A stretch of 35,223 bases of DNA, taken from contig JBDKFU010000057.1 of the NCBI GenBank assembly GCA_039798565.1, positions 1 through 35,223 on the forward strand. The letters run 5' to 3'. Position 1 is the stretch's first letter, and the number at the start of each line of letters is the position of its first letter. The notes below the pieces were generated by a model that saw only the letters and a list, made by a program, of their open reading frames with translations, searched no databases and had not been told where the DNA came from. Positions 1 to 33,748 of this stretch are shown here, piece by piece. Source of the DNA: Candidatus Parcubacteria bacterium. Its GTDB lineage: Bacteria > Patescibacteriota > Minisyncoccia > Phycocordibacterales > Phycocordibacteraceae. A program made the translations under genes and the position numbers.

Positions 1-321
1 CGGTGGAGCCCGGGCGGTGGGAGCCTCGAGGTGGGTGAGACGATTATAGAGGCGGTGAGGCGTGAAGTACGGGAGGAATTCTGCACGACGCCAACCGACA
101 TTGAACTCATGGGCTATCGCGATGTGATGCGCGAGATAGATGGGGTCAAAACGCACTGGGTTTTGTTCGATTTTCGAGCACGAGTAAATCGTGATGAGGT
201 AAAGATTGGAGAGCCGGACATGACCGACGAGATTATTTGGGTAAAAATAGGCGACATCCCCGAGCCGGTGCACTCGCAGTTTCCTGCCTACCTAGAGAAG
301 TACAAAGCCGAGCTGGTATAA
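1..321 (+). CDS. NUDIX hydrolase, 5' end cut by window edge
   Basis: Frame 1 is open from base 1. Translation reads GGGSLEVGETIIEAVRREVREEF, which fits the Nudix box GX5EX7REUXEEXGU. Stop TAA at 319-321. Confidence 0.8.
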   Translation, partial: RWSPGGGSLEVGETIIEAVRREVREEFCTTPTDIELMGYRDVMREIDGVKTHWVLFDFRARVNRDEVKIGEPDMTDEIIWVKIGDIPEPVHSQFPAYLEKYKAELV

Positions 322-322
322 T
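314..322 (+). promoter_or_regulatory. extended -10 box TGgTATAAT, leaderless promoter for the 329 gene
   Basis: Consensus TATAAT at 317-322 with TG at 314-315. ATG 329 lies 6 nt downstream. The box overlaps the NUDIX stop codon. Confidence 0.55.
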
Positions 323-328
323 GGCTCT

Positions 329-571
329 ATGTCACACGAAGATACTTCAAAGCTAACAATCGAGGAGCGGCGTCGAAGGGCCATTGCGATTTTTAATCAG
401 CTCAATAAGCCAGGCACTGTAACTCGTGCACTTGTAGATCTCCATCGAGCGGGAGGACCTTCGGGCTTCACTGAGGCAGAAATGCAACAGCGCTTTCCGG
501 CTTTTGTGAAGGCCGCCGGACAGCTGCGTCGCATCGGTGCCACTATCCGTGCGGACGAAAATAAAAAATAA
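329..571 (+). CDS. hypothetical 80-aa protein
   Basis: ORF begins at the position where the TGgTATAAT box predicts the transcription start. No family recognised. Confidence 0.5.
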   Translation: MSHEDTSKLTIEERRRRAIAIFNQLNKPGTVTRALVDLHRAGGPSGFTEAEMQQRFPAFVKAAGQLRRIGATIRADENKK

Positions 572-572
572 A

Positions 573-1052
573 ATGCCTACTTCACTTCGTGAGTGGGGAG
601 TGTTGGTGGCATGCATAGCGGTGTGCCAACTCGCCGGATTGATTGGAACTATTTTTACACTTGATGCGATACCTACGTGGTATGCATTTTTAGATAAGCC
701 GAGTTTCTCTCCACCAAATTGGCTTTTTGGTCCGGTATGGACAGCCCTCTACACTCTCATGGGTGTGTCACTGTATCTCGTGTGGCGCACACCAACAAGC
801 GGGGTACGCTCACTAGGTCTTCGCTGGTTTGGGGTGCAACTCGTACTGAATGCGCTGTGGTCCATACTTTTCTTTGGGCTTCAGAATCCGCTCTATGGAC
901 TGGTGTGTATCATACTCATGTTAGCGAGCATTGTGGTCACCACACGGTACTTCAACAGAGTGTCGTCGCTTGCGGCGTGGCTTTTGGCACCGTACATACT
1001 GTGGGTATCGTTTGCGACATTACTTAATGCGAGCATTTGGTACTTAAACTAA
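573..1052 (+). CDS. tspO: TspO/MBR family tryptophan-rich sensory protein
   Basis: ORF 537..1052 trimmed to ATG 573, just after the upstream stop. Trp-rich polytopic membrane protein. Motifs PSFSPPNWLFGPVWTALYTLMG and NALWSILFFG. Confidence 0.85.
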   Translation: MPTSLREWGVLVACIAVCQLAGLIGTIFTLDAIPTWYAFLDKPSFSPPNWLFGPVWTALYTLMGVSLYLVWRTPTSGVRSLGLRWFGVQLVLNALWSILFFGLQNPLYGLVCIILMLASIVVTTRYFNRVSSLAAWLLAPYILWVSFATLLNASIWYLN

Positions 1053-1053
1053 C

Positions 1054-2019: not shown

Positions 2020-2028
2020 TGGTATACT
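2020..2028 (+). promoter_or_regulatory. extended -10 box TGgTATACT upstream of pilM
   Basis: TATACT at 2023-2028 preceded by TG at 2020-2021. Lies in the divergent comFC/pilM intergenic region. Confidence 0.5.
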
Positions 2029-2058
2029 CACACCATACATGCGTGAGCGATTTTGTCT

Positions 2059-3168
2059 ATGAACTTTTCTCTAGGTGGCATAACGGACGCGATTAACAAG
2101 CTCACGGGGAGTCTCGGGGGTGGGGGAGACTCGGACTCAGTTATTGGGCTCGATATTGGTACGTCGACCATTAAAATGGTTCAGCTTAAGCAGAAAAAAG
2201 GTGCAGCAGTACTTGAAACGTACGGTGAAATTGCTCTCGGTCCCTATGCTTCTGCAGAAGTGGGGCAGTCAGTGAACGCGCCACAAGAAAAAGTGATTGA
2301 AGCACTCACCGACTTACTCCGAGAGTCAAACGCATCGAGCCGTACTGGCGGGGTGGCGGTGCCGCTCTCCGGCTCGCTTATCTCGGTTATCTCGCTGCCG
2401 ACAAAAAACCGCGATGATCTCGCGAGTATGGTGCCGATTGAGGCGAGAAAATATATCCCCGTGCCAGTCACTGAAGTTGCACTCGACTGGTTTGTCATTC
2501 CAGAAGAAGAAGCACGCTTTATTAGCGGCAACGCTGAAGAAAAAAAGAATGTGACCGATGTCTTGTTGGTTGCCATCCACAACCAGCTCATTGAGCGCGA
2601 CCAGGCGATACTTGCAGGCGCTGGTGTAACGGCAAAGTTTTTTGAAGTAGAGCCGTTCTCTATGGGGCGTGCAAGCTATGAGCATGGCACAGCGCCCGTG
2701 ATGGTTATTGATTTTGGCGCCTCGTCGACGCGCGTGTACATCGTCGAGTTTGGGATTATCTCTGTTTCGCATACAATACCGCGCGGTGGGCAGGACATCA
2801 CACTGTCGTGGTCTAAATCAAAGAGTATGACTTTTGCAGAGGCAGAAGCAGAAAAACGTTCACACGGAATCGAGAATAATGAGGTAGGAAAGTCGGTGAT
2901 CGAGTACGTTCTTTCAGAGGCACGTCGCATTTTCCTCAGCTATCAACGAAAAGAGAATAAGGCGGTATCCAAGGTTGTACTCCTTGGCGGCGGGGCACTC
3001 TTGAAGGGGCTCCCCGAGCTATCAAAACAATACTTTGATGCACCGATCACACTCGGCGCACCGTTTGACCGTGTGTCAGCGCCCGCTTTCATTTCAGAAG
3101 TATTAAAATTCGCCGGACCTTCATTCGCCTCGGCTATCGGTCTTGCACTGCGCGCCCTACAAAGGTAG
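2059..3168 (+). CDS. pilM: type IV pilus assembly protein PilM (actin-like ATPase fold)
   Basis: IGLDIGTSTIKMVQL plus the ASKHA motifs VIDFGASSTRVYIV and LLGGGALLKGL. The start could be TTG 2053 or ATG 2059. Confidence 0.85.
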   Translation: MNFSLGGITDAINKLTGSLGGGGDSDSVIGLDIGTSTIKMVQLKQKKGAAVLETYGEIALGPYASAEVGQSVNAPQEKVIEALTDLLRESNASSRTGGVAVPLSGSLISVISLPTKNRDDLASMVPIEARKYIPVPVTEVALDWFVIPEEEARFISGNAEEKKNVTDVLLVAIHNQLIERDQAILAGAGVTAKFFEVEPFSMGRASYEHGTAPVMVIDFGASSTRVYIVEFGIISVSHTIPRGGQDITLSWSKSKSMTFAEAEAEKRSHGIENNEVGKSVIEYVLSEARRIFLSYQRKENKAVSKVVLLGGGALLKGLPELSKQYFDAPITLGAPFDRVSAPAFISEVLKFAGPSFASAIGLALRALQR

Positions 3169-3213: not shown

Positions 3214-3222
3214 TGGTACACT
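3214..3222 (+). promoter_or_regulatory. extended -10 box TGgTACACT, leaderless promoter for the pilN-like gene
   Basis: TACACT at 3217-3222, 7 nt before ATG 3230. Confidence 0.45.
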
Positions 3223-3229
3223 TTAATGC

Positions 3230-3889
3230 ATGCAGGAGCGCGTCACGACCTCCTTTATTCCAAAGGAGTCATTAACATCAGAGCGAAAGCGCACCCCGAA
3301 CCCAGGGAATCCATTTGCAATAGTTAATATCATCACCGGCTTCATTTTGTTAGTCGCGGTACTCGCGTCTGCCGGGCTATTTCTCTTTGAAAACTACACC
3401 AAAGGTGCGATTGAAGCTAAAAAGGCATCTCTCGACAGACAGCGTGCCGCATTTGAGCCAGCGACTATCAAGGCACTCGCTCGACTTGATAGACGGTTGG
3501 ATGCTGGCGGACGTTTATTAAAGGGCCACGTTGCACTTTCAAATATTTTTCAAGAACTTGAAGCGCGCTCAGTACAGTCACTTCGTTTTACTGACTTTTC
3601 ATATGCAGCAGGGAACTTGGGGAGCATGGTTATCATCATGAACGGGGAGGCAACGAGCTTTAACGCTGTCGCGGTACAAGCAGACTCGCTCGGGGCGTCC
3701 CCATTATTCCAAGATCCCATTTTCTCCAACCTCAATATCGATAAGGACGGTACCGTAATCTTTACATTCACCGCAAATGTTGACCCATCACGCATTAGCT
3801 ACGCGACACTTCTTGCTGGCGCAGGTGCTGCGGCACAGCCAGAGGAGCTCGCGCCGCCAGCAGAGACAGGGACAACAACCGCACCATAA
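3230..3889 (+). CDS. PilN-like bitopic pilus alignment protein
   Basis: Short cytoplasmic tail (SFIPKE), one TM, a coiled segment and a C-terminal Ala/Pro-rich tail. Sits between pilM and pilO. Confidence 0.55.
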   Translation: MQERVTTSFIPKESLTSERKRTPNPGNPFAIVNIITGFILLVAVLASAGLFLFENYTKGAIEAKKASLDRQRAAFEPATIKALARLDRRLDAGGRLLKGHVALSNIFQELEARSVQSLRFTDFSYAAGNLGSMVIIMNGEATSFNAVAVQADSLGASPLFQDPIFSNLNIDKDGTVIFTFTANVDPSRISYATLLAGAGAAAQPEELAPPAETGTTTAP

Positions 3890-7996: not shown

Positions 7997-9211
7997 ATGA
8001 CACTCTATAACTACGAAGCAGTCGACCAGAACGGCACCAAACAGAAAGGTGGCATTGATGCGATCACACGCGATGTAGCGATTGCGAGCCTGCAACGCAG
8101 AGGATTAGTTGTTTCATCAGTGGATGAAGCAACAGCAAAAAAAGAATTTGGCTTCACCAGCCGCATTACGTTGTTTGAGGGCGTGTCTAATCGCGACGTT
8201 GTGCTTTTGTCGAGGCAGATTTCAACGTTGTTTGAGGCGCAAGTATCAGCGCTGCGCATTTTTAGATTACTTTCGTCAGAAGCAGAGAATCCGTTGTTGC
8301 AACGCGTGTTGACGGAGGTGGCGGATGATGTGCAGGCGGGCGCATCAATATCGAAGGCGCTGATGAAGCATCCAAAAGTGTTTTCAGAATTTTATACCAA
8401 TATGGTGCGCTCTGGTGAAGAGGCGGGTAAGCTCGACGAGATATTTTTATACCTCGCTGACTATCTCGACCGCTCATATGAAGTGGTGAGTAAGGCAAGA
8501 AACGCACTCATCTATCCTGCATTCGTTATCGGCACGTTCGTTGTCGTGATGATACTCATGATGACGATGGTTATTCCGCGCATCTCGCAGATTCTTCTGG
8601 ACTCCGGCCAGGCGATACCAGCGTACACGCGCGCGGTTATCGCTATTTCAGACTTCTTTGTAACGTACGGCGTATTCCTGCTTATTTTGTTTGTAGTCGG
8701 CGTCTTCTTTCTCATTCGGTACGTGCAAACACCAAACGGTAAGGCAGCGTTTGATCGGTTTGAGCTTGCAGTACCGTACATTGGTGATTTGTATAAAAAG
8801 CTATATCTTGCACGTATTTCAGACACCATGTCGACCATGCTCGTGTCCGGTATATCAGTGGTGCAAGCGGTAGAGATATCCTCGACAGTGGTGGGGAGCT
8901 CTGTGTTTCGCGATATTTTGAGTGAGGCCGGCACCACGGTGAAGGGGGGAGGGACCATATCGAGCGCACTTTCTAACCACCCCGAGGTGCCGGGCATTAT
9001 GACCGCCATGATAAAAATCGGCGAGGAAACGGGAGAGTTGGGGGCCATTTTGAAAACACTCGCGCGCTTCTACAATCGTGAGGTGTCGAACACGGTGGAC
9101 ACACTCGTGGACCTTATTGAACCGTTTATGATTGTGGTTTTGGGTCTTGGCGTCGGTATCCTTCTCGCGTCAGTGCTTATTCCTATCTACAATATTTCTT
9201 CAGCGCTCTAA
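7997..9211 (+). CDS. pilC: type IV pilus platform protein PilC (GspF family)
   Basis: 404 aa with two GspF-type repeats and hydrophobic segments. Follows pilT. Confidence 0.9.
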   Translation: MTLYNYEAVDQNGTKQKGGIDAITRDVAIASLQRRGLVVSSVDEATAKKEFGFTSRITLFEGVSNRDVVLLSRQISTLFEAQVSALRIFRLLSSEAENPLLQRVLTEVADDVQAGASISKALMKHPKVFSEFYTNMVRSGEEAGKLDEIFLYLADYLDRSYEVVSKARNALIYPAFVIGTFVVVMILMMTMVIPRISQILLDSGQAIPAYTRAVIAISDFFVTYGVFLLILFVVGVFFLIRYVQTPNGKAAFDRFELAVPYIGDLYKKLYLARISDTMSTMLVSGISVVQAVEISSTVVGSSVFRDILSEAGTTVKGGGTISSALSNHPEVPGIMTAMIKIGEETGELGAILKTLARFYNREVSNTVDTLVDLIEPFMIVVLGLGVGILLASVLIPIYNISSAL

Positions 9212-9221
9212 GATTCTCGGT

Positions 9222-9653
9222 ATGCAACAGCGCGGGTTCACCCTCATTGAGCTTCTCGTGGTTATAGGTATCATCGCCCTTTTGGCCGCAATCGTTTTGG
9301 CGTTTTTAAGTGATGGTCGTGAGAAGAGTCGTGACTCGGCACGGGCCGCTGACCTAAAACAGCTCCAGATAGCCCTTTCACTGTATTTTGATGCAACGGG
9401 TGCCTATCCACCAGATCTCTCGGTACTGGTGCCCAAATATATTTCAGTGATTCCAAAGGACCCGGCGTCGAATGCGGTGTACCCATACGATCGACTCTCT
9501 GACACTGACTATCATCTTGGCGCGAGCCTTGAGCAGGCAAACATAACATTGCTGAAAAGTGATGTCGATGCGACCTCAACGAACATTCTCGGCACGGATT
9601 CAGCCGGCTGTGCTGGCGGGGTAGGGTGGCACTGTTATGACGTACGTCCATAG
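9222..9653 (+). CDS. type IV major pilin, paralogue 1
   Basis: Prepilin leader MQQRG|FTLIELLVVIGIIALLAAI with Glu5. C-terminal Cys pair (GCAGGVGWHCYDVRP). ORF 9132 trimmed to ATG 9222. TAAGAT at 9209-9214 lies 7 nt upstream. Confidence 0.85.
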   Translation: MQQRGFTLIELLVVIGIIALLAAIVLAFLSDGREKSRDSARAADLKQLQIALSLYFDATGAYPPDLSVLVPKYISVIPKDPASNAVYPYDRLSDTDYHLGASLEQANITLLKSDVDATSTNILGTDSAGCAGGVGWHCYDVRP

Positions 9654-9750: not shown

Positions 9751-9756
9751 TATATT
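9751..9756 (+). promoter_or_regulatory. -10 box TATATT, leaderless promoter for pilin paralogue 2
   Basis: Sits in an AT-rich 109-nt intergenic region, 6 nt before ATG 9763. Confidence 0.5.
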
Positions 9757-9762
9757 CATACT

Positions 9763-10218
9763 ATGAACATATTTAGTAAGTCAGCTCGTGGTTTTACACT
9801 CATCGAGCTCTTGGTCGTTATCGCGATCATCGGTATTTTGTCGTCAATCGTGTTGGCGTCTTTGAACGATGCGCGTTTAAAAAGCCGTGATGCGAAGCGT
9901 GTTGCTGACATTAAGCAGATACAACTCGCACTCGAGTTGTACTACGATGCTACTGGCTCGTATCCAACAACAACGTTGTCTGTGTTGGCTCCAACCTATA
10001 TCTCTGCGCTTCCTGTTGATCCAGTTGGTGCAGCTGCATATCCGTATGACGGAGTTTCTGCAACTGATTATCACCTTGGTGCAGACCTTGAGCAGCGAAC
10101 GCATTCAGCACTTAGTGCTGATGTCGACTCTGACACCACCAACGTTGATGGTGACGATGACGACGGCTGTGCCGCTACCGCCGCGACCAACCGTTATTGC
10201 TACGACGTCGAACCATAG
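9763..10218 (+). CDS. type IV major pilin, paralogue 2
   Basis: Leader MNIFSKSARG|FTLIELLVVIAIIGIL. Shares motifs with paralogue 1 (YPYD, TDYHLGA.LEQ, CYDV.P). Contains an acidic DGDDDDG run. Confidence 0.85.
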   Translation: MNIFSKSARGFTLIELLVVIAIIGILSSIVLASLNDARLKSRDAKRVADIKQIQLALELYYDATGSYPTTTLSVLAPTYISALPVDPVGAAAYPYDGVSATDYHLGADLEQRTHSALSADVDSDTTNVDGDDDDGCAATAATNRYCYDVEP

Positions 10219-10233
10219 TCGACGCGCAGTTAC

Positions 10234-10264
10234 AAAAAACCCCCTACTGGGGGTTTTTTGTTTT
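10234..10264 (+). terminator. rho-independent terminator after pilin 2
   Basis: Stem aaaaaaccccc / gggggtttttt with loop tact, followed by a T-run. Confidence 0.8.
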
Positions 10265-10269
10265 ATACT
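10264..10269 (+). promoter_or_regulatory. -10 box TATACT abutting the terminator, leaderless promoter for pilD
   Basis: Lies 6 nt before the in-frame GTG at 10276. Confidence 0.45.
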
Positions 10270-10275
10270 GAAGCA

Positions 10276-22856: not shown

Positions 22857-22858
22857 AT

Positions 22859-23848: not shown

Positions 23849-23851
23849 TAT
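23846..23851 (+). promoter_or_regulatory. -10 box TAGTAT, possible leaderless promoter for cfa
   Basis: Overlaps the tkt stop codon. Lies 6 nt before ATG 23858. Confidence 0.35.
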
Positions 23852-23857
23852 TCGCCC

Positions 23858-24976
23858 ATGACGGGGGCGGAACGGAAAGTGCGAGAGCTTTTTGCACAAG
23901 CAGGGGTGACCGTTGATGGCCCAAACCCATGGGATATCCGCGTGCATGACAAGCGTTTTTATCGCAGTGTACTGGCCGGCGGGACGTTGGCCGCGGGGGA
24001 GTCCTATATGGACGGCTGGTGGGATGTGGACGACATGGCCGAGCTTGTTAATCGTCTCTTTCGGGCTGGGTTTAACTACACCGCTTTGGTGAATATTCGT
24101 ACGATAGGCTACTTCATATCGAGCTGGTTGTTCAATATGCAGAACAAACACCGTGCGTTTGAGGTGGGCGAAAAGCACTACGATGTGGGCAACGATTTGT
24201 ACGCTGCCATGCTTGATAGCCGTATGACCTATACCTGTGGGTATTGGAAAGAAGCACGTAGTCTTGAAGAGGCACAGAAGGCAAAACTTGACCTTATATG
24301 CAAAAAAATTGGACTCAAGAGTGGCGACCGAGTCTTAGACATTGGTGGGGGATGGGGGAGTTTTGCAGGATACGCAGCAGAAAAATATGGTGCATCAGTT
24401 GTCGCCATTACCGTTTCTAAAGAACAGGCTGCGCTGGGTCGCGAGCGCACTCAGGGACTCCCCGTCGAGATCCGCGTGCAGGACTATCGTGATGTGTCGG
24501 ATGGGCCCTATGATCACATCGTCTCTATTGGCATGTTTGAGCATGTAGGGTATAGAAACTATCGAACCTATATGAAAAAAGCTCACGCGCTTTTAAAGGA
24601 TGGTGGCTATTTTCTTTTGCATACAATAGGCTCGAACAAGTCTGTTCGAGCCGGTAGCCCCTGGCTTGATAAGTACATCTTTCCAAACGGGATGCTCCCG
24701 TCAGTTGCACAAATCGGTCGCGCTGCAGAACGATTGTTCGTCATTGAGGATTGGCAGAATTTTGGTCCAGACTATGATAGAACGCTGATGGAGTGGTATA
24801 GAAACTTTGATCGGTCACTCATCAACGTTGCAAAGCACTATACGCCGCGTTTCTATCGCATGTGGCGGTTCTATCTTCTGTCTTGTGCGGGAACATTTCG
24901 TGCGCGCTACTGTCAGCTCTGGCAGATAGTACTTGCAAAGCGTCCGCGGCCTGCGCGATACGACGCACCTCGATAG
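23858..24976 (+). CDS. cfa: cyclopropane-fatty-acyl-phospholipid synthase
   Basis: HYDVGNDLYAAMLDSRMTYTCGYW, SAM motif VLDIGGGWGSF, and FEHVG. Confidence 0.9.
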   Translation: MTGAERKVRELFAQAGVTVDGPNPWDIRVHDKRFYRSVLAGGTLAAGESYMDGWWDVDDMAELVNRLFRAGFNYTALVNIRTIGYFISSWLFNMQNKHRAFEVGEKHYDVGNDLYAAMLDSRMTYTCGYWKEARSLEEAQKAKLDLICKKIGLKSGDRVLDIGGGWGSFAGYAAEKYGASVVAITVSKEQAALGRERTQGLPVEIRVQDYRDVSDGPYDHIVSIGMFEHVGYRNYRTYMKKAHALLKDGGYFLLHTIGSNKSVRAGSPWLDKYIFPNGMLPSVAQIGRAAERLFVIEDWQNFGPDYDRTLMEWYRNFDRSLINVAKHYTPRFYRMWRFYLLSCAGTFRARYCQLWQIVLAKRPRPARYDAPR

Positions 24977-25000
24977 GGTATACTAATACGTACACGCCCT

Positions 25001-25636
25001 ATGGACGCACTTGTTAGTCTTTTGCCAGTCACACTGTTTGGCTGGGTGGTACAGCTTGCAATCAGTATCCCTGTCGCGCTCGTGGTGATCTCTTTTGGTG
25101 AGTACATCATGCATGCGTGGTTTATGCACCGCCGGTTTTTACCCGAGTGGGCGTATACCGTTTTTCCGGGGTTAGCGCGCACTATTTATGAGCACAGAGG
25201 ACTGCATCACGATACGTACTTCAAGCAGTTTAATCACGAACCTGACCCCGTTGGGAGGCATGTAAACATGTACATTAAGTGGAAGACGACGTTGTCAGGT
25301 GCAATACTGGTCGGCGCACTTTTTTCTTTCATAGGAGTATTTATTGGAACGCTGGTGCCCGCGATAGTCTTTTTTGTTCTCATGGTACTGCACCGCTATG
25401 CGTGGAATACACTCCACCCCGAGATGCACAACCCACGTCACCCGTGGTGGACGAAATATACCGCATACAAGTACCTCGCTCGCTATCACTACCTCCATCA
25501 CTACCTCCATCACAAGGGTATTCGCATGAATTATAATATTGTCGTGCCGTGCGCCGACTTTGTCCTCGGTCGCCACGCACACATCTTGGACGAACAAAAC
25601 ATTAAAGAAGTAAAAGAGTACGGCTATTGGTACTAA
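25001..25636 (+). CDS. membrane di-iron fatty acid hydroxylase/desaturase superfamily protein
   Basis: His boxes HAWFMH, HRGLHH and HHYLHH with hydrophobic segments. TATACT at 24979-24984 lies 16 nt upstream, implying a short leader. Confidence 0.7.
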   Translation: MDALVSLLPVTLFGWVVQLAISIPVALVVISFGEYIMHAWFMHRRFLPEWAYTVFPGLARTIYEHRGLHHDTYFKQFNHEPDPVGRHVNMYIKWKTTLSGAILVGALFSFIGVFIGTLVPAIVFFVLMVLHRYAWNTLHPEMHNPRHPWWTKYTAYKYLARYHYLHHYLHHKGIRMNYNIVVPCADFVLGRHAHILDEQNIKEVKEYGYWY

Positions 25637-25840: not shown

Positions 25841-25869
25841 TTGACCCATACTCTTGAGTCGTGTAAGGT
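25841..25869 (+). promoter_or_regulatory. sigma70-like promoter TTGACC-17 nt-TAAGGT, leaderless
   Basis: -35 box at 25841-25846, 17-nt spacer, -10 box at 25864-25869, then 6 nt to ATG 25876. Confidence 0.55.
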
Positions 25870-25875
25870 ATCGAC

Positions 25876-26139
25876 ATGGGACGAAAAAGTAATCATGAAG
25901 TTAATGGGCCAGGAGAAATCCCGTCCAGTTGGCCGTCAGAGAAAATTGCCGCAAAACTCGATGAGCATAGTGGGAGACGAAGAGCTGCAACACGAGTCGC
26001 GTGGGGGATTCGCTCACAGATTAACGCATTAAAAAAACAACAAAAACAGATTCGCGAGCTTTCCGCTGAGCACCGCTGGTTAGTCGATAGTGCAAAGCTT
26101 GCGCTAGAAGCTAAAGGCGCTACTGAGCCAAAGCGTTAA
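25876..26139 (+). CDS. hypothetical basic 87-aa protein
   Basis: The start sits at the position this full promoter predicts for the transcription start. Its 3' end overlaps the convergent kinase gene by 20 nt. Confidence 0.5.
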   Translation: MGRKSNHEVNGPGEIPSSWPSEKIAAKLDEHSGRRRAATRVAWGIRSQINALKKQQKQIRELSAEHRWLVDSAKLALEAKGATEPKR

Positions 26140-27103
26140 AAAGCGATTCGAGCTTTTCTTTTTTTAAAAGTCCGCGTTGAGCGCCAATGTCTTGGACAAC
26201 ATAAGCCGCGTTAATGAGTCCACGCTGCATCGCGTCTTTTAATGTGACGCCACCCATCGTCATATATGCAGCAACCGTTGAACAAAAAGCATCACCGGCG
26301 CCGGTACGCTCTATAGGTGGGTTAGGGTCCTTGTACATAGGTAAGTTAAAGGTAGTACCGTCTGCTTGGAGTGCGTACGCACCATTTTTATCATCAGTGA
26401 TGATGACATTCTTGGGACCCAGTGCAGCGAGGCCGGCTAGAAGTGGTGGTATATCGTCGGCGGTATCAGGGAGGCCCAAGACACGCTGTGCCTCTTCCTT
26501 GTTCACCACATACAAGTCAGCACGAGAGTACAATCGCTTTAGTCGTTCGACCCCCACCTTGATATCAAACACGCCAGGTTGAAAGGCGAAAAAAGTGTTT
26601 GGGTGTTGATGTAAATATTCCGCCAGCTCGTCTCGGTAGGGGAGCGCCTTCTCACCAATCGATGAAAAATAAATTGTTTTTGGCTCGGGCAAATCGTGGG
26701 GGAAGGTGTACTCGTACTCGTTTTGATGCACGAGAATGGTGCGTTCGTCCTCGTACCATAAGACATAGTGATAGTTAGTAGGAACCGCGGGCTGCTGAGT
26801 AACATACCCGGTATCAATATTCTCCGTTTTAAAATACTCGACTATCTTATCGCCATTGCTATCTTTCCCGATGTTGGTGATATGTGCGACGGAGAGACCA
26901 AGTCTTGCAGCTGACACTGCTGCATTTGCAGCATTACCGACGCCATATACGATAGTCGAGGATTCAAAAGGTACCTTGTCACCAAAGCGCACGCATAGTT
27001 CGCACTCCTCGTGATTGACTTTGCAGTGTACTGCCGCATCTTTGAGTCTAATAAAATCGTCCACGACAGTGTCTCCAACTGTCACAAAGTCCATATTTTT
27101 CAT
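26120..27103 (-). CDS. PfkB-family carbohydrate/nucleoside kinase
   Basis: N-terminal GDTVVDDF, GNAANAAV, and the C-terminal anion-hole motif TGAGDAF. Confidence 0.85.
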   Translation of the reverse strand: MKNMDFVTVGDTVVDDFIRLKDAAVHCKVNHEECELCVRFGDKVPFESSTIVYGVGNAANAAVSAARLGLSVAHITNIGKDSNGDKIVEYFKTENIDTGYVTQQPAVPTNYHYVLWYEDERTILVHQNEYEYTFPHDLPEPKTIYFSSIGEKALPYRDELAEYLHQHPNTFFAFQPGVFDIKVGVERLKRLYSRADLYVVNKEEAQRVLGLPDTADDIPPLLAGLAALGPKNVIITDDKNGAYALQADGTTFNLPMYKDPNPPIERTGAGDAFCSTVAAYMTMGGVTLKDAMQRGLINAAYVVQDIGAQRGLLKKEKLESLFNALAQ

Positions 27104-27109
27104 ACGTTT

Positions 27110-27115
27110 AGTATA
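27110..27115 (-). promoter_or_regulatory. -10 box TATACT (minus strand), leaderless promoter for the kinase
   Basis: Minus strand reads TATACT aaacgt ATG, with the A of the ATG at 27103. Confidence 0.5.
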
Positions 27116-27127
27116 TCGTATCTCGTG

Positions 27128-27133
27128 TACTAT
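27128..27133 (+). promoter_or_regulatory. -10 box TACTAT, leaderless promoter for the FAD oxidase
   Basis: Lies 6 nt before ATG 27140. Shares the 36-bp intergenic region with the divergent box. Confidence 0.45.
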
Positions 27134-27139
27134 AGATGT

Positions 27140-28786
27140 ATGACGCTGGTTGACGATTTAAAGCGGGTGATACGTGGTGATGTCGATGACGGAGCCTCGG
27201 CGCGTGAGCTCGTGAGCCGTGACGCGAGTGTGTATCGTGTTATGCCTGAGGTTGTAGTGCGCCCGCGAGATGCAAAGGATATTCAAGCGCTGGTGACGTT
27301 GGTGAGTGAGAAAAAAAGAGACGGCGAGTCAGTATCACTCACCGCGCGTTCTGCAGGCACCGATATGTCGGGTGGCCCGCTCACCACGTCCATCGTTGTT
27401 GATATGTTGAAGTATTTTTCAGGCGTTTCAAAGGTAACTGACGGTCATGCTGAGGTGCTGCCCGGTACCTACTTTCGCGACTTTGATAAGGCGACAAAGC
27501 TGACCGGACAAGAGCTGCCGAGCTACACGGCGAGTCGTGAGATTTGCACCGTCGGTGGCATGGTGGGGAATAACGCTGGGGGCGAAAAAAATTTAAAATA
27601 TGGAAAGACGGCACGCTACGTTGAATCACTCGATGTAGTGATGGCAGACGGCATGGTGCATACGCTAAAAAATTTGGAAGGTGCAGCGCTCAAAGCAAAA
27701 CTCGCTGAGCACGGCTTCGAGGGAGATGTGTACCGTGCGTGTTCTAGTCTTTTGCAAAATAACAAAATGGTTATTGAGACCCACAAACCAGCGGTAGAAA
27801 AAAACTCGTCTGGGTATGCGCTCTGGGACATTGGCGATGGGGTATCCAAACTAAATCTCGCTCGGCTTATGGTCGGCGCACAGGGGACTCTCGGTATTAT
27901 CACCGACATTCACTTTTCACTCGTTCGACCAAAGAAATACGCATCAATGGTAGTGGTTTTTTTGAATGACCTGAAGGAGTTGGGCCCCATTATCCCTACA
28001 GTGCTAAAGAATAATCCTGATAGTTTTGAATCGTATGATGACCATACCTTTCGACTTGCAGTTAAATATTTTCCTGAGTTTGTGTCACAGATGGGTGCGA
28101 ATATTGTGTCGCTCGGCATTTCATTTTTACCAGAGATGTGGATGCTGGCGACCGGTGGTGTGCCAAAGTTGGTGCTGTTAATTGAATTTCGCGACGACGA
28201 GCAGGGCAAGGCGCTTTCGCGAGCGCGGGCGATGCGTACTGAACTGAGGAGTCTCCACACGCATGCAGGCATCCGCATTGCAAAAAATCAGAACGCGGCA
28301 AAAAAGTATTGGACTATCCGTCACGAGGCGTTTAACTTGCTTCGAAAAAAAGTGCGCGGAAAAAGAACTGCACCCATCATCGATGACTTTGTTGTCCCAC
28401 CGCCATCACTGCCAGAGTTTCTTCCAAAACTTACTGCGATACTTGATGCATACCGGTTTCCGTATGCAGTGACGGGTCACGTGGGGGATGGAAACTTTCA
28501 TATCTTTCCACTTCTCGATTTCAAGGATCCACGTATTGGTTCACTAATGCGTGAGCTGGTCGAGAAAGTGCATACGCTTGTCTTGTCATATAAGGGTTCT
28601 ATTTCAGGTGAGCATAACGACGGTATGATACGTACACCCTACGTTGAAACGCAGTTTGGGCACGAGATGTACGCGCTCTTTGAGCAGGTCAAAAAAATCT
28701 TTGACCCGCTCAACATCTTCAACCCCGGCAAAAAAGTCGGCCTCACCCGCGACCAATCCGCAGCTCATTTAGATTTGTTAAAATAA
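27140..28786 (+). CDS. FAD-linked oxidase (GlcD / D-lactate dehydrogenase-like)
   Basis: FAD_binding_4-type N-terminal half (RSAGTDMSGG, GGMVGNNAGGEKNLKYG). C-terminal GHVGDGNFH...SGEHNDG. ORF 27011 trimmed to ATG 27140. Confidence 0.85.
   Translation: MTLVDDLKRVIRGDVDDGASARELVSRDASVYRVMPEVVVRPRDAKDIQALVTLVSEKKRDGESVSLTARSAGTDMSGGPLTTSIVVDMLKYFSGVSKVTDGHAEVLPGTYFRDFDKATKLTGQELPSYTASREICTVGGMVGNNAGGEKNLKYGKTARYVESLDVVMADGMVHTLKNLEGAALKAKLAEHGFEGDVYRACSSLLQNNKMVIETHKPAVEKNSSGYALWDIGDGVSKLNLARLMVGAQGTLGIITDIHFSLVRPKKYASMVVVFLNDLKELGPIIPTVLKNNPDSFESYDDHTFRLAVKYFPEFVSQMGANIVSLGISFLPEMWMLATGGVPKLVLLIEFRDDEQGKALSRARAMRTELRSLHTHAGIRIAKNQNAAKKYWTIRHEAFNLLRKKVRGKRTAPIIDDFVVPPPSLPEFLPKLTAILDAYRFPYAVTGHVGDGNFHIFPLLDFKDPRIGSLMRELVEKVHTLVLSYKGSISGEHNDGMIRTPYVETQFGHEMYALFEQVKKIFDPLNIFNPGKKVGLTRDQSAAHLDLLK
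28776..28784 (+). promoter_or_regulatory. extended -10 box TGtTAAAAT, leaderless promoter
   Basis: TAAAAT at 28779-28784 overlaps the oxidase stop codon. Lies 6 nt before ATG 28791. Confidence 0.45.
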
Positions 28787-28790
28787 GCGC

Positions 28791-29171
28791 ATGTCAGACA
28801 AAAAAATAAAAGTTTTCATCTCGATGCCATTTACTGGCAAAACATTCGAGGCACTCACCAAAGAGCGAGAAGATTTGCACGCACTTGCGGCAACATATAA
28901 TCTTGAACTTCCAGAACAATTTATTGGGTACCAGTTTGAAGAGGATTTTAGAACCAAGGAGTATGATCCGTCGTTCATCCTTGCAAAAGATAAAAAGTGG
29001 ATTAAGGAATCAGATATTATCGTCGCAGATTTTTCTGCACCATCCCTTGGGACCGCCTGTGAGGTTACTATTGCAAAAGAGTTGTATGACAAAGAAGTAA
29101 TTGGAATTGTTCCAGGCGTTGAAAAGCGAAAGCACGAGTGTCTTCGTTTTTTTTGTGATCATTTTGCATAA
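28791..29171 (+). CDS. nucleoside 2-deoxyribosyltransferase-like protein
   Basis: KVFISMPFTGK N-terminus and DIIVADFSAPSLGTACEVTIAKE (Rossmann-like fold with a conserved Glu). Confidence 0.6.
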   Translation: MSDKKIKVFISMPFTGKTFEALTKEREDLHALAATYNLELPEQFIGYQFEEDFRTKEYDPSFILAKDKKWIKESDIIVADFSAPSLGTACEVTIAKELYDKEVIGIVPGVEKRKHECLRFFCDHFA

Positions 29172-30016: not shown

Positions 30017-30277
30017 ATGGAACTCGTTATTTATTTTTTTGCAGGAGTGTTGCAGGACTTTTTAGTCACATTAAACTGGCGCTATATCGCAAAAGAAAAA
30101 ATCTGGCCAGCAACAACCCTCTCATTTCTTGCCACAGTGGTCACCATGGCGGTGCTGTACAACATCTTAACGCAGCTCGACTCGGATAGGAGTATGATTG
30201 CAATAGTAATATATGCACTCGGTATCGCAGCTGGGACATTTCTCGGCATGAAAACAAAGTTTGGTATGAAGGAGTGA
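30017..30277 (+). CDS. small membrane protein (DUF5698/UPF0316 N-terminal-like)
   Basis: 86 aa with hydrophobic helices. FFAGVLQDFLVTLNWRYIAKEK resembles the UPF0316 N-terminal region, from memory. Confidence 0.5.
   Translation: MELVIYFFAGVLQDFLVTLNWRYIAKEKIWPATTLSFLATVVTMAVLYNILTQLDSDRSMIAIVIYALGIAAGTFLGMKTKFGMKE
30269..30274 (+). promoter_or_regulatory. Shine-Dalgarno AAGGAG, the only clear one in the window
   Basis: AAGGAG lies 8 nt upstream of ATG 30283. Confidence 0.55.
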
Positions 30278-30282
30278 GTGGC

Positions 30283-30921
30283 ATGAACGACATTAAGAAA
30301 ATATTTGAGTTTACGACGTACCTGGAGGGTTTTAAAAAGCTAGAACGGTTTGTTGGACAAACGTTTTGGAGGGAGTATCCAAAGCCACACCACTATGAGT
30401 CGAACGCTGACCATTCGTGGCGCATGGCGATGCTCCTCGTGGTGCTTGAATCTCGACTTGCGCAACCCATCGATTTTAAAAAGGCGATGACCATGCTGCT
30501 CATCCATGACATCCCCGAGCTTATCGCAGGGGACCCAAGCCCATTAGGTGCGTCCGGCACCGGCGAGGACTCACACGCGTTTAATGAAAAATTAGCAGAA
30601 GAGAAGTTTGAACGAGAAAAGAGTGCGGCAGAAATCATTTTTGCAAAACTGCCGCACGCTGAAGCTGAAAGACTTATGGAGCTGTGGCTCGAGTTTGAAA
30701 ATCAGTCATCATATGAAGCGCGCGTGGTGCGAGCGCTTGATAAGTTTGAAGGGAAGCTCCAGTGCATTGAATACACAAACAGTGTGATGTTTAAACCACA
30801 CTATGATTTTACGATGCGGTACGGCGTTGACACATTCGCCGTCGACCCGGTGATTAAAGAACTTGGTGATGTATTGCTTAAAGAGTTAGAAACAAACTAC
30901 ACAGAATTTAAGCAAACGTAG
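30283..30921 (+). CDS. HD-domain phosphohydrolase (YfbR-like 5'-deoxynucleotidase)
   Basis: HSWRMAMLL and LLIHDIPELIAGD give the H...HD...D metal motif. ATG 30283 preferred over GTG 30274 because of the Shine-Dalgarno spacing. Confidence 0.8.
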   Translation: MNDIKKIFEFTTYLEGFKKLERFVGQTFWREYPKPHHYESNADHSWRMAMLLVVLESRLAQPIDFKKAMTMLLIHDIPELIAGDPSPLGASGTGEDSHAFNEKLAEEKFEREKSAAEIIFAKLPHAEAERLMELWLEFENQSSYEARVVRALDKFEGKLQCIEYTNSVMFKPHYDFTMRYGVDTFAVDPVIKELGDVLLKELETNYTEFKQT

Positions 30922-30932: not shown

Positions 30933-30941
30933 TGCTTAAAT
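30933..30941 (+). promoter_or_regulatory. extended -10-like TGcTTAAAT, leaderless promoter
   Basis: TTAAAT at 30936-30941, 6 nt before ATG 30948. Confidence 0.35.
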
Positions 30942-30947
30942 AGTGCT

Positions 30948-31658
30948 ATGTGTTGGAGTTTAGAGGCATCCGCAGGACTTGCCATTGTTGGCGCTGCAGC
31001 AACTATCTATTCATACCGTAGAGGGGATTCGTCCCTTTTGTGGGTGCCGCTCGCGTACTTTGTCGGCATGGAGGTGCTCCAGGCCTTAAGTTATCCAGTA
31101 ATAAACAACTGTACGTCGACGCAGAATCAACTGCTGACGTTGCTCAGCTACTTCCACATTGCCTTTCAACCGTTCTTTTTTAATGCGCTCTATATGTACT
31201 TCATACCAAAGGGGGTACGGCAGCGGATTCTCCCGTGGGTCTATGCGTTCTGTTTTGCAATGGCCGTCATTATGCTCGTGCGCGTTTATCCGATAGACGG
31301 GATTGCTCAGTGTCAGGTGGGGTCGTACCTATGTGGATCAGAGCTTTGCACACTCACCGGCTCATGGCACCTTGCGTGGTCGGTGCCACTCAACGACGCC
31401 CTGCCATACGTGCCGGCGTACGCGCTCGCAGTCTTTATCCTCCCGCTGTTGTACGGATCGTGGAAGGGGGTCATTTTTAGCGTTGTTACGGGACCCATAC
31501 TTTCATTTTTGACGACGTCAAACGTTAATGAGCAGCCGGCAGTGTGGTGCCTCTTCTCAGTAGCCTTTCTCTTCCTTATTTTCTTTACAAGGCTTCGAGA
31601 CTACCTGCATGTTCGCTCATTCTTCTGGTGGCCAAAATCGTGGACTCGGGACCTTTGA
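30948..31658 (+). CDS. hypothetical polytopic membrane protein
   Basis: 236 aa with about 6-7 hydrophobic segments and several Cys. No family recognised. Confidence 0.6.
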   Translation: MCWSLEASAGLAIVGAAATIYSYRRGDSSLLWVPLAYFVGMEVLQALSYPVINNCTSTQNQLLTLLSYFHIAFQPFFFNALYMYFIPKGVRQRILPWVYAFCFAMAVIMLVRVYPIDGIAQCQVGSYLCGSELCTLTGSWHLAWSVPLNDALPYVPAYALAVFILPLLYGSWKGVIFSVVTGPILSFLTTSNVNEQPAVWCLFSVAFLFLIFFTRLRDYLHVRSFFWWPKSWTRDL

Positions 31659-31691
31659 TTTTTCGATAGTATCGGGTATAGTAGGGGGACT

Positions 31692-32354
31692 ATGGCAGCA
31701 CTGGATATCAAGGCATCAAAGCGCACCGCGCTCGGGAAGGCTGTGGCAGACCTCCGTAAGGGGGGTGAAATGCCGGCGGTCGTATACGGTCCTAAGCAGG
31801 AGTCGACATCAATTACCCTCAATACTCGCGAGTTCGAGAAGCTTTTTAAGGCGGCAGGCGAGTCAACCGTCGTCAATGTCTCTATCGATGGCGAAACCGT
31901 TCCGACACTTATCCACGAGGTAGACCACGACCCACTCACTGGTACTGTCCGTCACGCTGATTTCTACGCGATTGTTAAGGGTCAGAAGGTGAGTGTACAG
32001 GTACCCCTTGAGTTCGTTGGTGAATCACCAGCAGTTAAGGAGGGCGCAAACTTGGTTAAGACCATGCACGAGCTTGAGGTTGAGGCCGACCCGATGAATC
32101 TCCCACACGAACTTATGGTGGATATCTCTACGCTTGCCGCTATCGGTGACCAAGTACTTGCACAGGACATAACGCTTCCATCTGGCGTAACTCTCGTTAC
32201 GAACGCAGAAGAAGTAATCGCACTCATCGCAGCTGCAAACGAGGAGGTCATTGAAGAGGCTCCAACTGCAGTTGATATGTCAGCGATCGGCGACGCCGTA
32301 GAGCGCGGAAAGAAGGAAGAGGAGGTGATTGAGGGCGACGCGCCAGCTGCCTAG
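31692..32354 (+). CDS. rplY: ribosomal protein L25 / general stress protein Ctc form
   Basis: RTALGKAVADLRKGGEMPAVVYG N-terminus, HADFY, and an acidic C-terminal extension. TATAGT at 31677-31682 lies 9 nt upstream. Confidence 0.88.
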   Translation: MAALDIKASKRTALGKAVADLRKGGEMPAVVYGPKQESTSITLNTREFEKLFKAAGESTVVNVSIDGETVPTLIHEVDHDPLTGTVRHADFYAIVKGQKVSVQVPLEFVGESPAVKEGANLVKTMHELEVEADPMNLPHELMVDISTLAAIGDQVLAQDITLPSGVTLVTNAEEVIALIAAANEEVIEEAPTAVDMSAIGDAVERGKKEEEVIEGDAPAA

Positions 32355-32382
32355 GACCGTCACACACAGATTTCCTGCGCGT

Positions 32383-32388
32383 TATACT
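32383..32388 (+). promoter_or_regulatory. -10 box TATACT, leaderless promoter for the envelope operon
   Basis: Lies 7 nt before ATG 32396. Confidence 0.45.
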
Positions 32389-32395
32389 TAGAGGT

Positions 32396-33748
32396 ATGCG
32401 CGCTTTTTTTGTTTTCAGTGTAATCATGATCGTGTTCTGCGGTGCATTTTTGTATGCACCGTCACCGGTATCGGCGGAGTTTTTGAGCGAAGAGGATAAG
32501 GCGCGTCTACAAGACGAATATAACAAGATTCAAGCAGAGATAGGCGAGTGGCAGAAGGTTCTTGATGAAACGAGGGGTAAGAAGAATAGTCTGCAGGGCG
32601 ACGTCACCGCGCTGAATGCGTTGATTAAAAAGGCTGAGGCAGAGATACGACAGCGTGGTGTGACCGTTACGAAATTGGGCAACGATATCGCTCAAAAGAC
32701 GCAGCAGATAAGTAGCTATGAGGAAAAGCTGCGACGTAGCCGGCTGTCACTCGCGAACATGCTGCGTAAACAATTTGAGTCTGACGAGCGATCAGTAGCA
32801 GAGCTCGTGTTATCCGCTGACGACTTCTCATCTTTTTATGGCGGGATAGAAGCGCTTGCTTTTGTTCGTCGCGATTTGCAGGGGTTATTTGACGAGGTGC
32901 GTACTGTAAAGGCGCTAACGGAGGAGCAAAAGATAGCACTGACTGAGAAGCAAAATCAAGAACTTGATGCAAAATATGATGTTGAGCGCACAAAAAAACA
33001 AATTGCCGCTAATGAAAGAGAGAAGCAGACACTGCTGTCTATAACGAAAAACCAAGAGAAGCAATATTCGACCGTGCTTGCAGAAAGACAGCGTAAGGCG
33101 GAGCAAATACGAAATGCATTGTTCCCCCTGCGTGACGTCGAAGGCATCTCGTTTGGCGATGCAGTCGAGTTTGCTGCAGTTGCCTCTGAGAAGACCGGTG
33201 TACGACCGGCGATGATACTGGCCATTCTGTCCCAAGAGTCTGATTTGGGCAAAAACATTGGCTCCTGCTACATATCGAGCCTAGATACGGGGGATGGTGT
33301 CGGTAAAAATACCGGCAAAGTATTTAGTGGAGTTATGAAATCGCCGCGCGATACGGTACCGTTCGAGCGTATAACGACGGCACTCGGCAGGATGTGGGGT
33401 GCGACCCCGGTCTCGTGTCCGGCACCGGGCGGATACGGTGGCGCTATGGGTCCGACGCAGTTTATCCCCTCAACGTGGGTGTTATACGAAGCGCGACTTC
33501 GTGCAGCGCTCGGCATAAGTGGTACTCCTGATCCGTGGGACGCAAAAACGGCTATTATTGCAACCGGACTTTTAATGAAAGATAACGGTGCCGATGGAGG
33601 TACGTTCACTGCAGAGTGGAATGCGGCGTGCAGGTACTATTCTGGCTCTGGCTGCAGCAAAAACAAATCAGTTGCGGCGTATGGTGACTCAGTAATTAAA
33701 AAAGCAGAGAGCTTTCAAGAGAACATTGATTTTTTGAAGGGCATATAA
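32396..33748 (+). CDS. secreted coiled-coil protein with a C-terminal lytic transglycosylase (SLT/MltB-like) domain
   Basis: N-terminal signal/anchor. About 230 aa of heptad-rich sequence. Then AILSQESDLG (catalytic Glu) and GAMGPTQFIPSTW. Confidence 0.75.
   Translation: MRAFFVFSVIMIVFCGAFLYAPSPVSAEFLSEEDKARLQDEYNKIQAEIGEWQKVLDETRGKKNSLQGDVTALNALIKKAEAEIRQRGVTVTKLGNDIAQKTQQISSYEEKLRRSRLSLANMLRKQFESDERSVAELVLSADDFSSFYGGIEALAFVRRDLQGLFDEVRTVKALTEEQKIALTEKQNQELDAKYDVERTKKQIAANEREKQTLLSITKNQEKQYSTVLAERQRKAEQIRNALFPLRDVEGISFGDAVEFAAVASEKTGVRPAMILAILSQESDLGKNIGSCYISSLDTGDGVGKNTGKVFSGVMKSPRDTVPFERITTALGRMWGATPVSCPAPGGYGGAMGPTQFIPSTWVLYEARLRAALGISGTPDPWDAKTAIIATGLLMKDNGADGGTFTAEWNAACRYYSGSGCSKNKSVAAYGDSVIKKAESFQENIDFLKGI

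Follow-up and report, generated by a model that had tools for sequence, protein, structure and literature searches.

Extended −10 boxes at start codons suggest leaderless, Shine-Dalgarno-poor gene expression in a Patescibacteria locus

The stretch of DNA analyzed here, hereafter called the window, comprises the 35,223 nucleotides (nt) of contig JBDKFU010000057.1 (35.2 kb, G+C 50%). It encodes a type IV pilus cluster (pilM/N/O, pilB, a response regulator, pilT, pilC, two pilins, a prepilin peptidase and four minor pilins), the NAD-dependent DNA ligase LigA, gatC-gatA and a tRNA-Met, together with GAPDH, rpiB, rpe, a split transketolase, a cyclopropane-fatty-acid-synthase-like methyltransferase, ribosomal protein bL25, an SLT transglycosylase and others. 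By its gene content the window is ordinary chromosomal DNA; a phage origin was considered and rejected, since megablast against phage records gave no match and the genes present (pilus cluster, ligA, gatCA, GAPDH, pentose-phosphate genes, bL25) are chromosomal. An Rfam search of the window returned the tRNA as sole match, with neither riboswitches nor ribosomal-protein leaders. The element in question is a hexamer, TAnnnT, lying a few nt upstream of many start codons. A preliminary description of the sequence had interpreted it as a −10 promoter box and proposed a largely leaderless mode of expression, poor in Shine-Dalgarno (SD) sites. In silico tests bear out the scarcity of SD sites and point to leaderless expression of about two-thirds of first genes; the proposal does not hold for all genes, at least three units appearing to have short leaders without SD.

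The closest relatives of the window's GatA in the species-representative genomes searched are 54–56% identical and all belong to Patescibacteria, also known as the candidate phyla radiation (CPR): Saccharibacteria, Nomurabacteria and "Patescibacteria group". We take the window to come from an ultra-small CPR bacterium akin to Saccharibacteria. Several of the relatives keep the gene order pilus-ligA-gatCA. Exact matches to the window's proteins, sought in order to extend it, were not on record. Of the sequences found, a groundwater metagenome contig, L081, is the closest, with a LigA 89% identical and DNA 76–79% identical and colinear with window positions 14986–21571. The metagenomic relatives were divided into near (L081–L095), mid (L096–L114) and far (L115–L132) sets, while the human-gut contigs L133–L160 (about 28 near-identical contigs from the LigA scan, 43% identical to the query) are clonal copies of one species, whose counts are not independent, and served as a negative control only. 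Genes and starts in all fetched loci, CPR and controls alike, were called by the same pipeline, namely open reading frames (ORFs) of at least 80 amino acids (aa) from their first ATG. We use gap for the number of nt between the end of the hexamer and the start codon, and first gene for a gene preceded by at least 20 nt of intergenic DNA or by a divergent neighbor, with curated starts in the window.

All 18 start codons listed in the preliminary description were found in place, as were 17 of the 18 hexamers; the box before ATG 19265, placed at 19254–19259 with a gap of 5 nt, is in fact TATACT at 19253–19258 with a gap of 6. The gaps, reported as 5 nt once, 6 nt thirteen times and 7 nt four times, measure 6 nt at 14 starts and 7 nt at the other four (3230, 9222, 14575 and 32396). 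Seventeen hexamers conform to TAnnnT, the remaining one, TTAAAT at 30936, being a near-match preceded by TGn. This near-match had also been counted as the seventh box with the TGn extension; six true TAnnnT boxes carry it (317, 3217, 14506, 14562, 16581 and 28779), that is 6/17 versus an expected 1/16 (binomial P = 4e-4). The number of genes, put at about 49, is about 46–47 on recount, and the frequency of TAnnnT in the window, 0.0126 per position, is slightly below the 1/64 assumed in the earlier chance estimate; the excess over chance holds. Apart from these minor corrections, the presence of TAnnnT boxes at start codons is confirmed.

Positional enrichment, which had been proposed as a check, was recovered with a rule blind to the motif. 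When the first ATG of each of 47 gene-sized ORFs was taken as the start and TAnnnT was counted at gaps 0–59, 12 occurrences fell at gap 6 and three at gap 7, versus a mean of 0.91 and a maximum of four at the other gaps (Poisson P = 3e-10 for gap 6). The pattern TANNNT-N6-ATG has 24 matches on both strands; 12 of these are gene starts, which make up only 47 of the 1216 ATGs (hypergeometric P = 5e-12). All four matches of TGNTANNNT-N6-RTG in the window are gene starts too, and about one-third of the called genes carry a box. Chance matches in A/T-rich intergenic DNA, upstream stop codons that supply the "TA" and a choice of starts biased by the box itself might conceivably combine into such a picture. 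The total of TANNNT-N6-ATG matches shows only a mild excess over shuffled sequence (24 vs. 15.7), the upstream stop codon forms the beginning of two boxes and another three share bases with the 3′ end of the gene before them, one listed box proved not to be TAnnnT and another was displaced by 1 nt, and a coding motif of pilins (see below) yields false TACTCT-N7-ATG matches. Such an artefact is nevertheless contradicted by the motif-blind peak (12 boxes at gap 6 where 0.9 are expected), by the TGn enrichment, by the lack of a peak in identically treated control genomes, by the conservation of boxes in L081 and at orthologous starts, and by starts that are fixed by domain boundaries and prepilin motifs. 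For the boxes as an ensemble the artefact is already refuted, and we give it hardly any credence.

The pilin motif just mentioned is GFTLIEM, at the N-terminus of the protein (11618–11660; orthologues, for example, in L012 and L014). It is encoded by ..TTTACTCTgatagaaATG, which looks like a −10 box with an in-frame ATG 7 nt behind it and systematically gives false hits in scans of the TAnnnT-before-ATG type. The apparent boxes of 16 of the 32 orthologues of the pilin gene at 11618 were discarded on this ground.

With a gap of 6 nt the A of the ATG is the seventh nt after the −10 hexamer, hence the canonical +1. The logo of 59 box-bearing starts from the window and CPR relatives shows, at positions that played no part in selection, T-15 (0.61), G-14 (0.61), T-10 (0.53), A-9 (0.68) and A-8 (0.59), with a pyrimidine at −1 (0.79) before the purine at +1. 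They spell out the consensus of an extended −10, TGnTAtaaT with Y(−1)R(+1), and the TG at −15/−14 is combined with T-12, A-11 and T-7 as in sigma-70 extended −10 promoters. No −35 signal is present in this logo, and good −35 hexamers at 17 nt accompany few boxes (14529 TTGACA, 25841 TTGACC and 23823 TTGATA), the promoter of ATG 14494 matching sigma-70 better than any other in the window (12/12 plus TG). The −10 element and its placement, rather than a −35/−10 pair, appear to carry the signal. Divergent ATGs are separated by 36 nt (27103/27140) or 80 nt (14494/14575) and both −10 boxes lie within each spacer; the shorter one leaves no room for leaders. At pilD, a strong terminator hairpin extends right up to the box. 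In the window the box is found at 12 of 18 first genes versus 5 of 27 tightly coupled genes (Fisher P = 0.0017), and in syntenic relatives at 36% of first versus 9% of internal genes. The same TATACT box precedes the untranslated tRNA-Met gene. Several independent lines of evidence thus say that the boxes behave as sigma-70 −10 elements.

The hexamer might instead be transcribed and act in translation, as an A/U-rich non-SD enhancer about 10 nt before the start that binds the ribosome or bS1 on mRNAs with leaders. A lineage devoid of SD signal would need some other initiation signal, its upstream regions are A/T-rich and G-poor, and some tightly coupled genes do have the box (5/27 in the window, 13% in relatives). 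The precedent would be group B of GeneMarkS-2 (Bacteroidota), in which mRNAs have leaders and the same non-SD motif precedes first and internal genes alike (PMC6028130). Here, by contrast, the motif is promoter-like and biased to first genes, marking gatC and not gatA, while boxless internal genes have no positioned motif. Furthermore, the conserved positions (T-12, A-11, T-7, TG at −15/−14 and Y-1 R+1) are those that sigma reads as DNA, the spacing is fixed at 6 nt, a tRNA gene has the same box, and divergent starts 36 nt apart provide no site for upstream promoters outside coding sequence. A translational role of the box therefore seems unlikely to us, and we retain the promoter interpretation.

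Other in-frame ATG, GTG or TTG codons exist within the first 30 codons of some ORFs, and the small ORFs at 329 and 25876 have no homology support for their start; even with real promoters, the first cistron could in principle be translated from such a downstream codon, in which case the mRNAs would have leaders and the annotated N-termini would be untranslated. The starts are, however, independently anchored, because the domains of GAPDH, LigA, GatC, PilD and the FAD oxidase begin within a few residues of the proposed Met and pilin starts are set by short prepilin leaders and their signal-peptide boundaries (MQQRG/FTLIE for the pilin at 9222). Moreover, the N-termini of orthologues align to within about three codons, the ATG is conserved together with the box, and no SD precedes any downstream candidate. 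We regard translation from downstream codons as very unlikely and take the boxes to lie at true starts.

Conservation of the boxes is clearest in L081. For gatC, TGGTAAAGT-N6-ATG is retained in box, spacing and ATG amid diverged flanks, and upstream of GAPDH a block of 23 identical nt, TCACGCTATACTATTTGTATGGC, corresponds to box, spacer and ATG, beyond which the upstream sequence cannot be aligned; the TATACT of tRNA-Met is likewise kept despite diverged flanks. Across distant CPR loci the sequence changes while the box architecture persists. Scored at gaps 5–8 in the larger CPR set, boxes are present in 28/34 gatC orthologues (23 with TGn), 15/29 of pilD (9 with TGn) and 24/56 of ligA (11 with TGn); in the first set of CPR loci, 8/11 LigA orthologues had (TGn)TAnnnT at gaps 6–8. 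Orthologues of internal genes remain at background, with 6/46 for gatA (none with TGn), 3/18 for pilT and 4/20 for pilC, and the frequencies for gatC and gatA differ with P = 4e-10. The PilN-like gene at 3230 has a box in all three of its orthologues, the second pilin has TGcTACAAT at gap 6 in L002 and TGaTATAAT at gap 7 in L003, and pilD in L012 again combines TATAAT with a GTG start after 6 nt.

The gap-6 peak extends to loci from related genomes, with TAnnnT at 10/62 starts in Saccharibacteria and 24/146 in other CPR genomes. The metagenomic sets, for which the extended form was counted as well, gave 37/244 (TGnTAnnnT 19/244) for near, 27/217 (13/217) for mid and 19/182 (8/182) for far relatives, against a TGnTAnnnT background below one per gap in all sets (0.4 in the near set). 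Actinobacterial loci, from a group known to be rich in leaderless genes, show a small TAnnnT peak at gaps 6–7, whereas the gap-6 peak is absent from the Gammaproteobacterial and human-gut control loci; the latter have TAnnnT counts repeated at fixed larger offsets. Its recurrence in related CPR genomes makes the predicted architecture a trait of the lineage rather than of this one locus.

The claim that only one clear SD is visible in the window also stands, AAGGAG at 30269–30274 being the sole good site and GAGG 13 nt before ATG 2003 of the minus strand a weak second. Scoring of SD usage beyond the window, as the preliminary description had advised, revealed no peak of SD 4-mers either in the window or in about 0.45 Mb of the closer CPR relatives, while the most distant set (L115–L132) has a faint rise at gaps 6–9. 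The same pipeline detects a strong peak at gaps 4–11 in Gammaproteobacterial and human-gut controls, very strong in the latter. Consistently, the energy of the duplex with the anti-SD is no better upstream of starts than inside coding sequence in the window and closer CPR loci. Internal genes follow their predecessors closely, as had been noted, most gaps in the window being −4, −1 or +1 to +12 nt. In CPR loci, 9% of same-strand stop-to-start distances are −4 (ATGA) and 20% fall at +1 to +5 nt, versus 7% for the latter in non-CPR controls. Internal genes without a box have A/T-rich, G-depleted upstream regions without any positioned motif; TGnTAnnnT is present at 4% of "internal" genes in relatives, which is above background.

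Taken together, these results support in silico, and rather well, the production of leaderless mRNAs from extended −10 promoters, and we consider it highly probable that most first genes in the window are leaderless. In about two-thirds of the transcription units, promoters of the housekeeping sigma would amount essentially to a −10 hexamer, in many cases extended by TGn and mostly lacking a recognizable −35, and the hexamer would be placed so that RNA polymerase begins with the start codon's A (or G). The resulting mRNAs would have no 5′ leader and would therefore need their 5′-terminal AUG to be recognized directly, the established way in which other bacteria translate leaderless mRNAs. Genes further down the operons, as well as the few genes with short putative leaders, likewise lack SD. 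Given their tight packing, with the previous stop codon at a distance of −4 or +1 to +5 nt, downstream genes would most likely be read through coupling or reinitiation of the terminating ribosome, or possibly by another SD-independent route.

Several observations weigh against this interpretation or narrow it. Five of the 18 boxes (before 329, 9222, 22859, 23858 and 28791) belong to tightly coupled genes and overlap or abut the upstream stop or 3′ end, and in two of them (9222 and 23858) the "TA" is the stop codon itself. Two or three of these five may be stop-codon coincidences; the boxes before 329, 28791 and 23858 are accompanied by TGn or a good −35 and may act as leaderless promoters inside operons, while those before 9222 and 22859 are weak. 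Three −10 boxes lie too far upstream for leaderless transcripts, at 30 nt (pilM), 16 nt (25001) and 9 nt (31692, bL25) before the ATG, and these genes too are without SD. Full −35/−10 matches (scans for TTGACA-N16-18-TATAAT) are not enriched in the window relative to shuffled sequence (22 vs. 17.6 and 24 vs. 20.5 expected). The transcription start site (TSS) at the start codon is inferred from promoter geometry, and coupling or reinitiation at internal genes, for which the spacing of stop and start is circumstantial evidence, is plausible. No 16S 3′ end is contained in the fetched CPR loci, the only one found being in an Actinomycetaceae locus. Finally, start calling in the relatives was crude (first ATG), and the fractions obtained there, including the roughly 16% of genes estimated from the counts in the metagenomic sets to carry a box above background, are rough lower bounds.

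Table 1. Promoter boxes, spacings and related features of the window (hexamer coordinates in brackets; minus-strand coordinates descend)
Elements and spacing	Span	Strand	Gene or feature	Remarks
TGgTATAAT (box 317–322), 6 nt, ATG 329	314..331	+	80-aa ORF	7 nt after upstream stop; box overlaps that stop, TAA 319–321; weak −35-like TAGAGA 293–298; candidate internal leaderless promoter
TGgTATACT (box 2023–2028), 30 nt to ATG 2059, 24 nt to TTG 2053	2023..2061	+	pilM	Exception; predicted leader roughly 17–23 nt, without SD
TGgTACACT (box 3217–3222), 7 nt, ATG 3230	3214..3232	+	PilN-like	First gene; upstream gap 61 nt
TAAGAT, 7 nt, ATG 9222	9209..9224	+	Pilin	TAA is the pilC stop; weak, maybe coincidental
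TATATT, 6 nt, ATG 9763	9751..9765	+	Second pilin	Upstream intergenic gap 109 nt
Intrinsic terminator hairpin, 13 pairs plus T-run	10232..10261	+	After pilin gene	Adjoins pilD −10 box without spacer
TATACT (10264–10269), 6 nt, GTG 10276	10232..10278	+	Prepilin peptidase PilD	Span includes the terminator
TATACT (13905–13900), 6 nt, ATG 13893	13891..13905	−	DUF1826-like	28 nt after same-strand upstream gene
TTGACA (14529–14524), 17 nt, TGaTATAAT (box 14506–14501), 6 nt, ATG 14494	14492..14529	−	190-aa ORF	Perfect consensus promoter
TGgTACAAT (box 14562–14567), 7 nt, ATG 14575	14559..14577	+	LigA	Divergent from 14494; 80-nt spacer
TGgTAAAGT (box 16581–16586), 6 nt, ATG 16593	16578..16595	+	gatC	First of gatC-gatA; 23 nt after ligA stop
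TTGATT, 16 nt, TATACT (19101–19106), 10 nt, tRNA	19079..19189	+	tRNA-Met (19117–19189)	Box at non-coding gene
TATACT (19253–19258), 6 nt, ATG 19265	19253..19267	+	GAPDH	Pfam domain from residue 4
TACAAT, 6 nt, ATG 22859	22847..22861	+	Transketolase C-terminal subunit	Box inside 3′ end of upstream ORF, whose stop lies 2 nt before ATG; low-confidence internal promoter
TTGATA, 17 nt, TAGTAT (23846–23851), 6 nt, ATG 23858	23823..23860	+	Cyclopropane-fatty-acid-synthase-like methyltransferase	TAG is the upstream stop; candidate internal promoter
TATACT (24979–24984), 16 nt, ATG 25001	24979..25003	+		Exception; predicted leader roughly 9–10 nt, without SD
TTGACC (25841–25846), 17 nt, TAAGGT (25864–25869), 6 nt, ATG 25876	25841..25878	+	87-aa ORF	Upstream gap 38 nt
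TATACT (27115–27110), 6 nt, ATG 27103	27101..27142	−	PfkB kinase	Divergent pair
TACTAT (27128–27133), 6 nt, ATG 27140	27101..27142	+	FAD-linked oxidase	Divergent pair
TGtTAAAAT (box 28779–28784), 6 nt, ATG 28791	28776..28793	+	Nucleoside-deoxyribosyltransferase-like ORF	Overlaps upstream stop TAA 28784–28786; candidate internal leaderless promoter
AAGGAG (30269–30274), 8 nt, ATG 30283	30269..30285	+	HD-domain hydrolase	Sole good SD
TGcTTAAAT (box 30936–30941), 6 nt, ATG 30948	30933..30950	+	DUF5765 protein	Near-match, not TAnnnT; upstream gap 26 nt
TTGATT, 16 nt, TATAGT (31677–31682), 9 nt, ATG 31692	31655..31694	+	Ribosomal protein bL25	Predicted leader roughly 2–3 nt, without SD
GTCACA, 18 nt, TATACT (32383–32388), 7 nt, ATG 32396	32359..32398	+	SLT-domain transglycosylase	Upstream gap 41 nt

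The individual sites listed in table 1 present some further features. The T-run of the strong terminator behind the pilin gene is fused to the −10 box of pilD, so that some sequence belongs to both terminator and promoter. On the minus strand, the interval from the last minor pilin to ligA (13180–14494) holds a DUF1826-like gene and a 190-aa ORF, the latter carrying the only perfect TTGACA-17-TATAAT promoter of the window; in syntenic CPR loci (e.g., L002 and L012) the minor pilin gene is directly followed by ligA, without the two minus-strand genes. The tRNA-Met, which is 100% identical in L081, is initiator-like, with an A1.A72 mismatch and G:C pairs beside the anticodon loop, and its CCA is not encoded. 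In L081 (4121–6014) about 0.7 kb and about 1.1 kb of extra DNA flank this tRNA in comparison with the window, marking a variable spot beside it. The nucleoside-deoxyribosyltransferase-like ORF (28791–29171) and a methyltransferase ORF, which opens at 29172 and runs to 30014, lie in the same frame one TAA apart. The first start in the methyltransferase ORF is TTG 29193, and neither box nor SD, nor any ATG before 29295, is present. A leaderless start of this gene (29193–30014) after TACAAT 29217–29222 was rejected, since no in-frame start codon follows that hexamer.

Transketolase is split into genes for an N-terminal (21402–22262) and a C-terminal subunit (22859–23848), with a 196-aa ORF without Pfam match (22266–22856) between the two halves; all three genes are tightly coupled. 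The window also contains a gene for a TspO/MBR-family membrane protein (573–1052) and one for a methyltransferase of the cyclopropane/mycolic-acid-synthase type (23858–24976). Functions of these two kinds, related to lipids or tetrapyrroles, strike us as unexpected in such a reduced genome.

Leaderless architecture in itself is already known from Actinobacteria, Deinococcus-Thermus and Mycoplasma. The accepted way to spot leaderless genes of bacteria in silico is a TANNNT lying about 10 nt ahead of the start codon (Zheng et al. 2011, PMC3160421; PMC6028130); such "TA-led" genes exceed 20% in Actinobacteria and Deinococcus-Thermus (PMC3160421), where the leaderless model of GeneMarkS-2, group C, is also frequent (Lomsadze et al. 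2018, PMC6028130). The window resembles these genomes (Mycobacterium tuberculosis, Streptomyces, Deinococcus-Thermus) in the sharp peak of TAnnnT 6–8 nt before starts of operon-first genes, in a share of box-bearing genes within the reported range of more than 20%, and in a strong preference for AUG. It differs from typical group C in its Patescibacteria/CPR lineage and intermediate G+C (0.50), in boxes that often have the extended TGn without any −35 signal, and in the remaining genes, which use SD in group C (PMC6028130) whereas here internal genes as well as first genes with putative leaders lack SD signal. On account of these SD-less remaining genes, the expression logic would resemble that of haloarchaea or Mycoplasma more closely than that of Mycobacterium.

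Mycoplasma pneumoniae reportedly has low SD usage and some leaderless transcripts. Its promoters comprise a Pribnow box with extended TGN and no clear −35 (PMC5573727). The window shares with this and other Mollicutes genome reduction, promoters whose information lies chiefly in TGnTAtaaT, a −35 that seems weak or missing, and many genes without SD. It differs in belonging to an unrelated phylum and in the tightly constant 6 nt that separate −10 and ATG at most first genes, implying that leaderlessness is systematic, in place of heterogeneous short leaders; the Mycoplasma data are experimental, whereas the architecture described here is predicted from sequence. Haloarchaea are said to have mostly leaderless first cistrons and to translate internal genes by termination-reinitiation without a functional SD. 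For Haloferax volcanii more than 60% of leaderless genes are reported (PMC6028130). The similarity lies in the leaderless first cistron, in downstream cistrons that abut or overlap and in scant or absent SD; in archaea, by contrast, the promoter's TATA box lies about 26 nt ahead of the start codon and the translation factors are archaeal, whereas a bacterial −10 lies at 6 nt here.

The scarcity of SD upstream of genes genome-wide is shared with Bacteroidota of group B and with Parcubacteria that lack the anti-SD. CPR ribosomes are unusual in having a short bS1 and missing uL30, and the anti-SD has been lost in part of the Parcubacteria (Tsurumaki et al. 2022, PMC9297842); that study reported reduced anti-SD detection in one Parcubacteria subgroup only and did not analyze mRNA leaders. 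For N. lyticus TM7x, PMC12641261 lists 188 TSSs from RNA-seq, the sole CPR set of this kind that we saw cited, and a transcriptome preprint on TM7x makes no mention of untranslated regions or TSSs. We found no paper linking leaderless or SD-less expression with Saccharibacteria, Patescibacteria or CPR, in a search of the literature that was incomplete and leaves the novelty unproven; pipelines with GeneMarkS-2 may already model such genomes as leaderless, unreported. What appears to be new is the lineage, plus the absence of SD at internal genes.

If our interpretation is correct, the Patescibacteria, a very large and mostly uncultivated bacterial group, would join the lineages rich in leaderless genes, and would provide a bacterial lineage with almost no role for SD pairing, internal operon genes included. 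Gene finders based on SD would then systematically misplace starts in CPR genome bins; taking the longest ORF in the window gives the wrong start for, at the least, ligA, GAPDH, FAD oxidase and the pilin at 9222. Simple promoter prediction would also follow, a box 6 nt before the start codon signifying the start of a transcription unit, and expression cassettes for the newly tractable Saccharibacteria would be better designed with TGnTAtaaT 6 nt before the ATG than with an SD. The reduced CPR ribosome would, moreover, be linked to the mode of mRNA initiation. A broader version, in which a whole branch of the Patescibacteria/CPR (Saccharibacteria-like bacteria and relatives) has abandoned SD-guided initiation in favor of leaderless first cistrons from −35-less extended −10 promoters and reinitiation downstream, is possible but rather doubtful, and we advance it tentatively. 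Should it be true, the branch would represent a bacterial counterpart of haloarchaeal expression logic, with a possible tie to the reduced CPR ribosome, its short bS1, missing proteins and, in some lineages, loss of the anti-SD.

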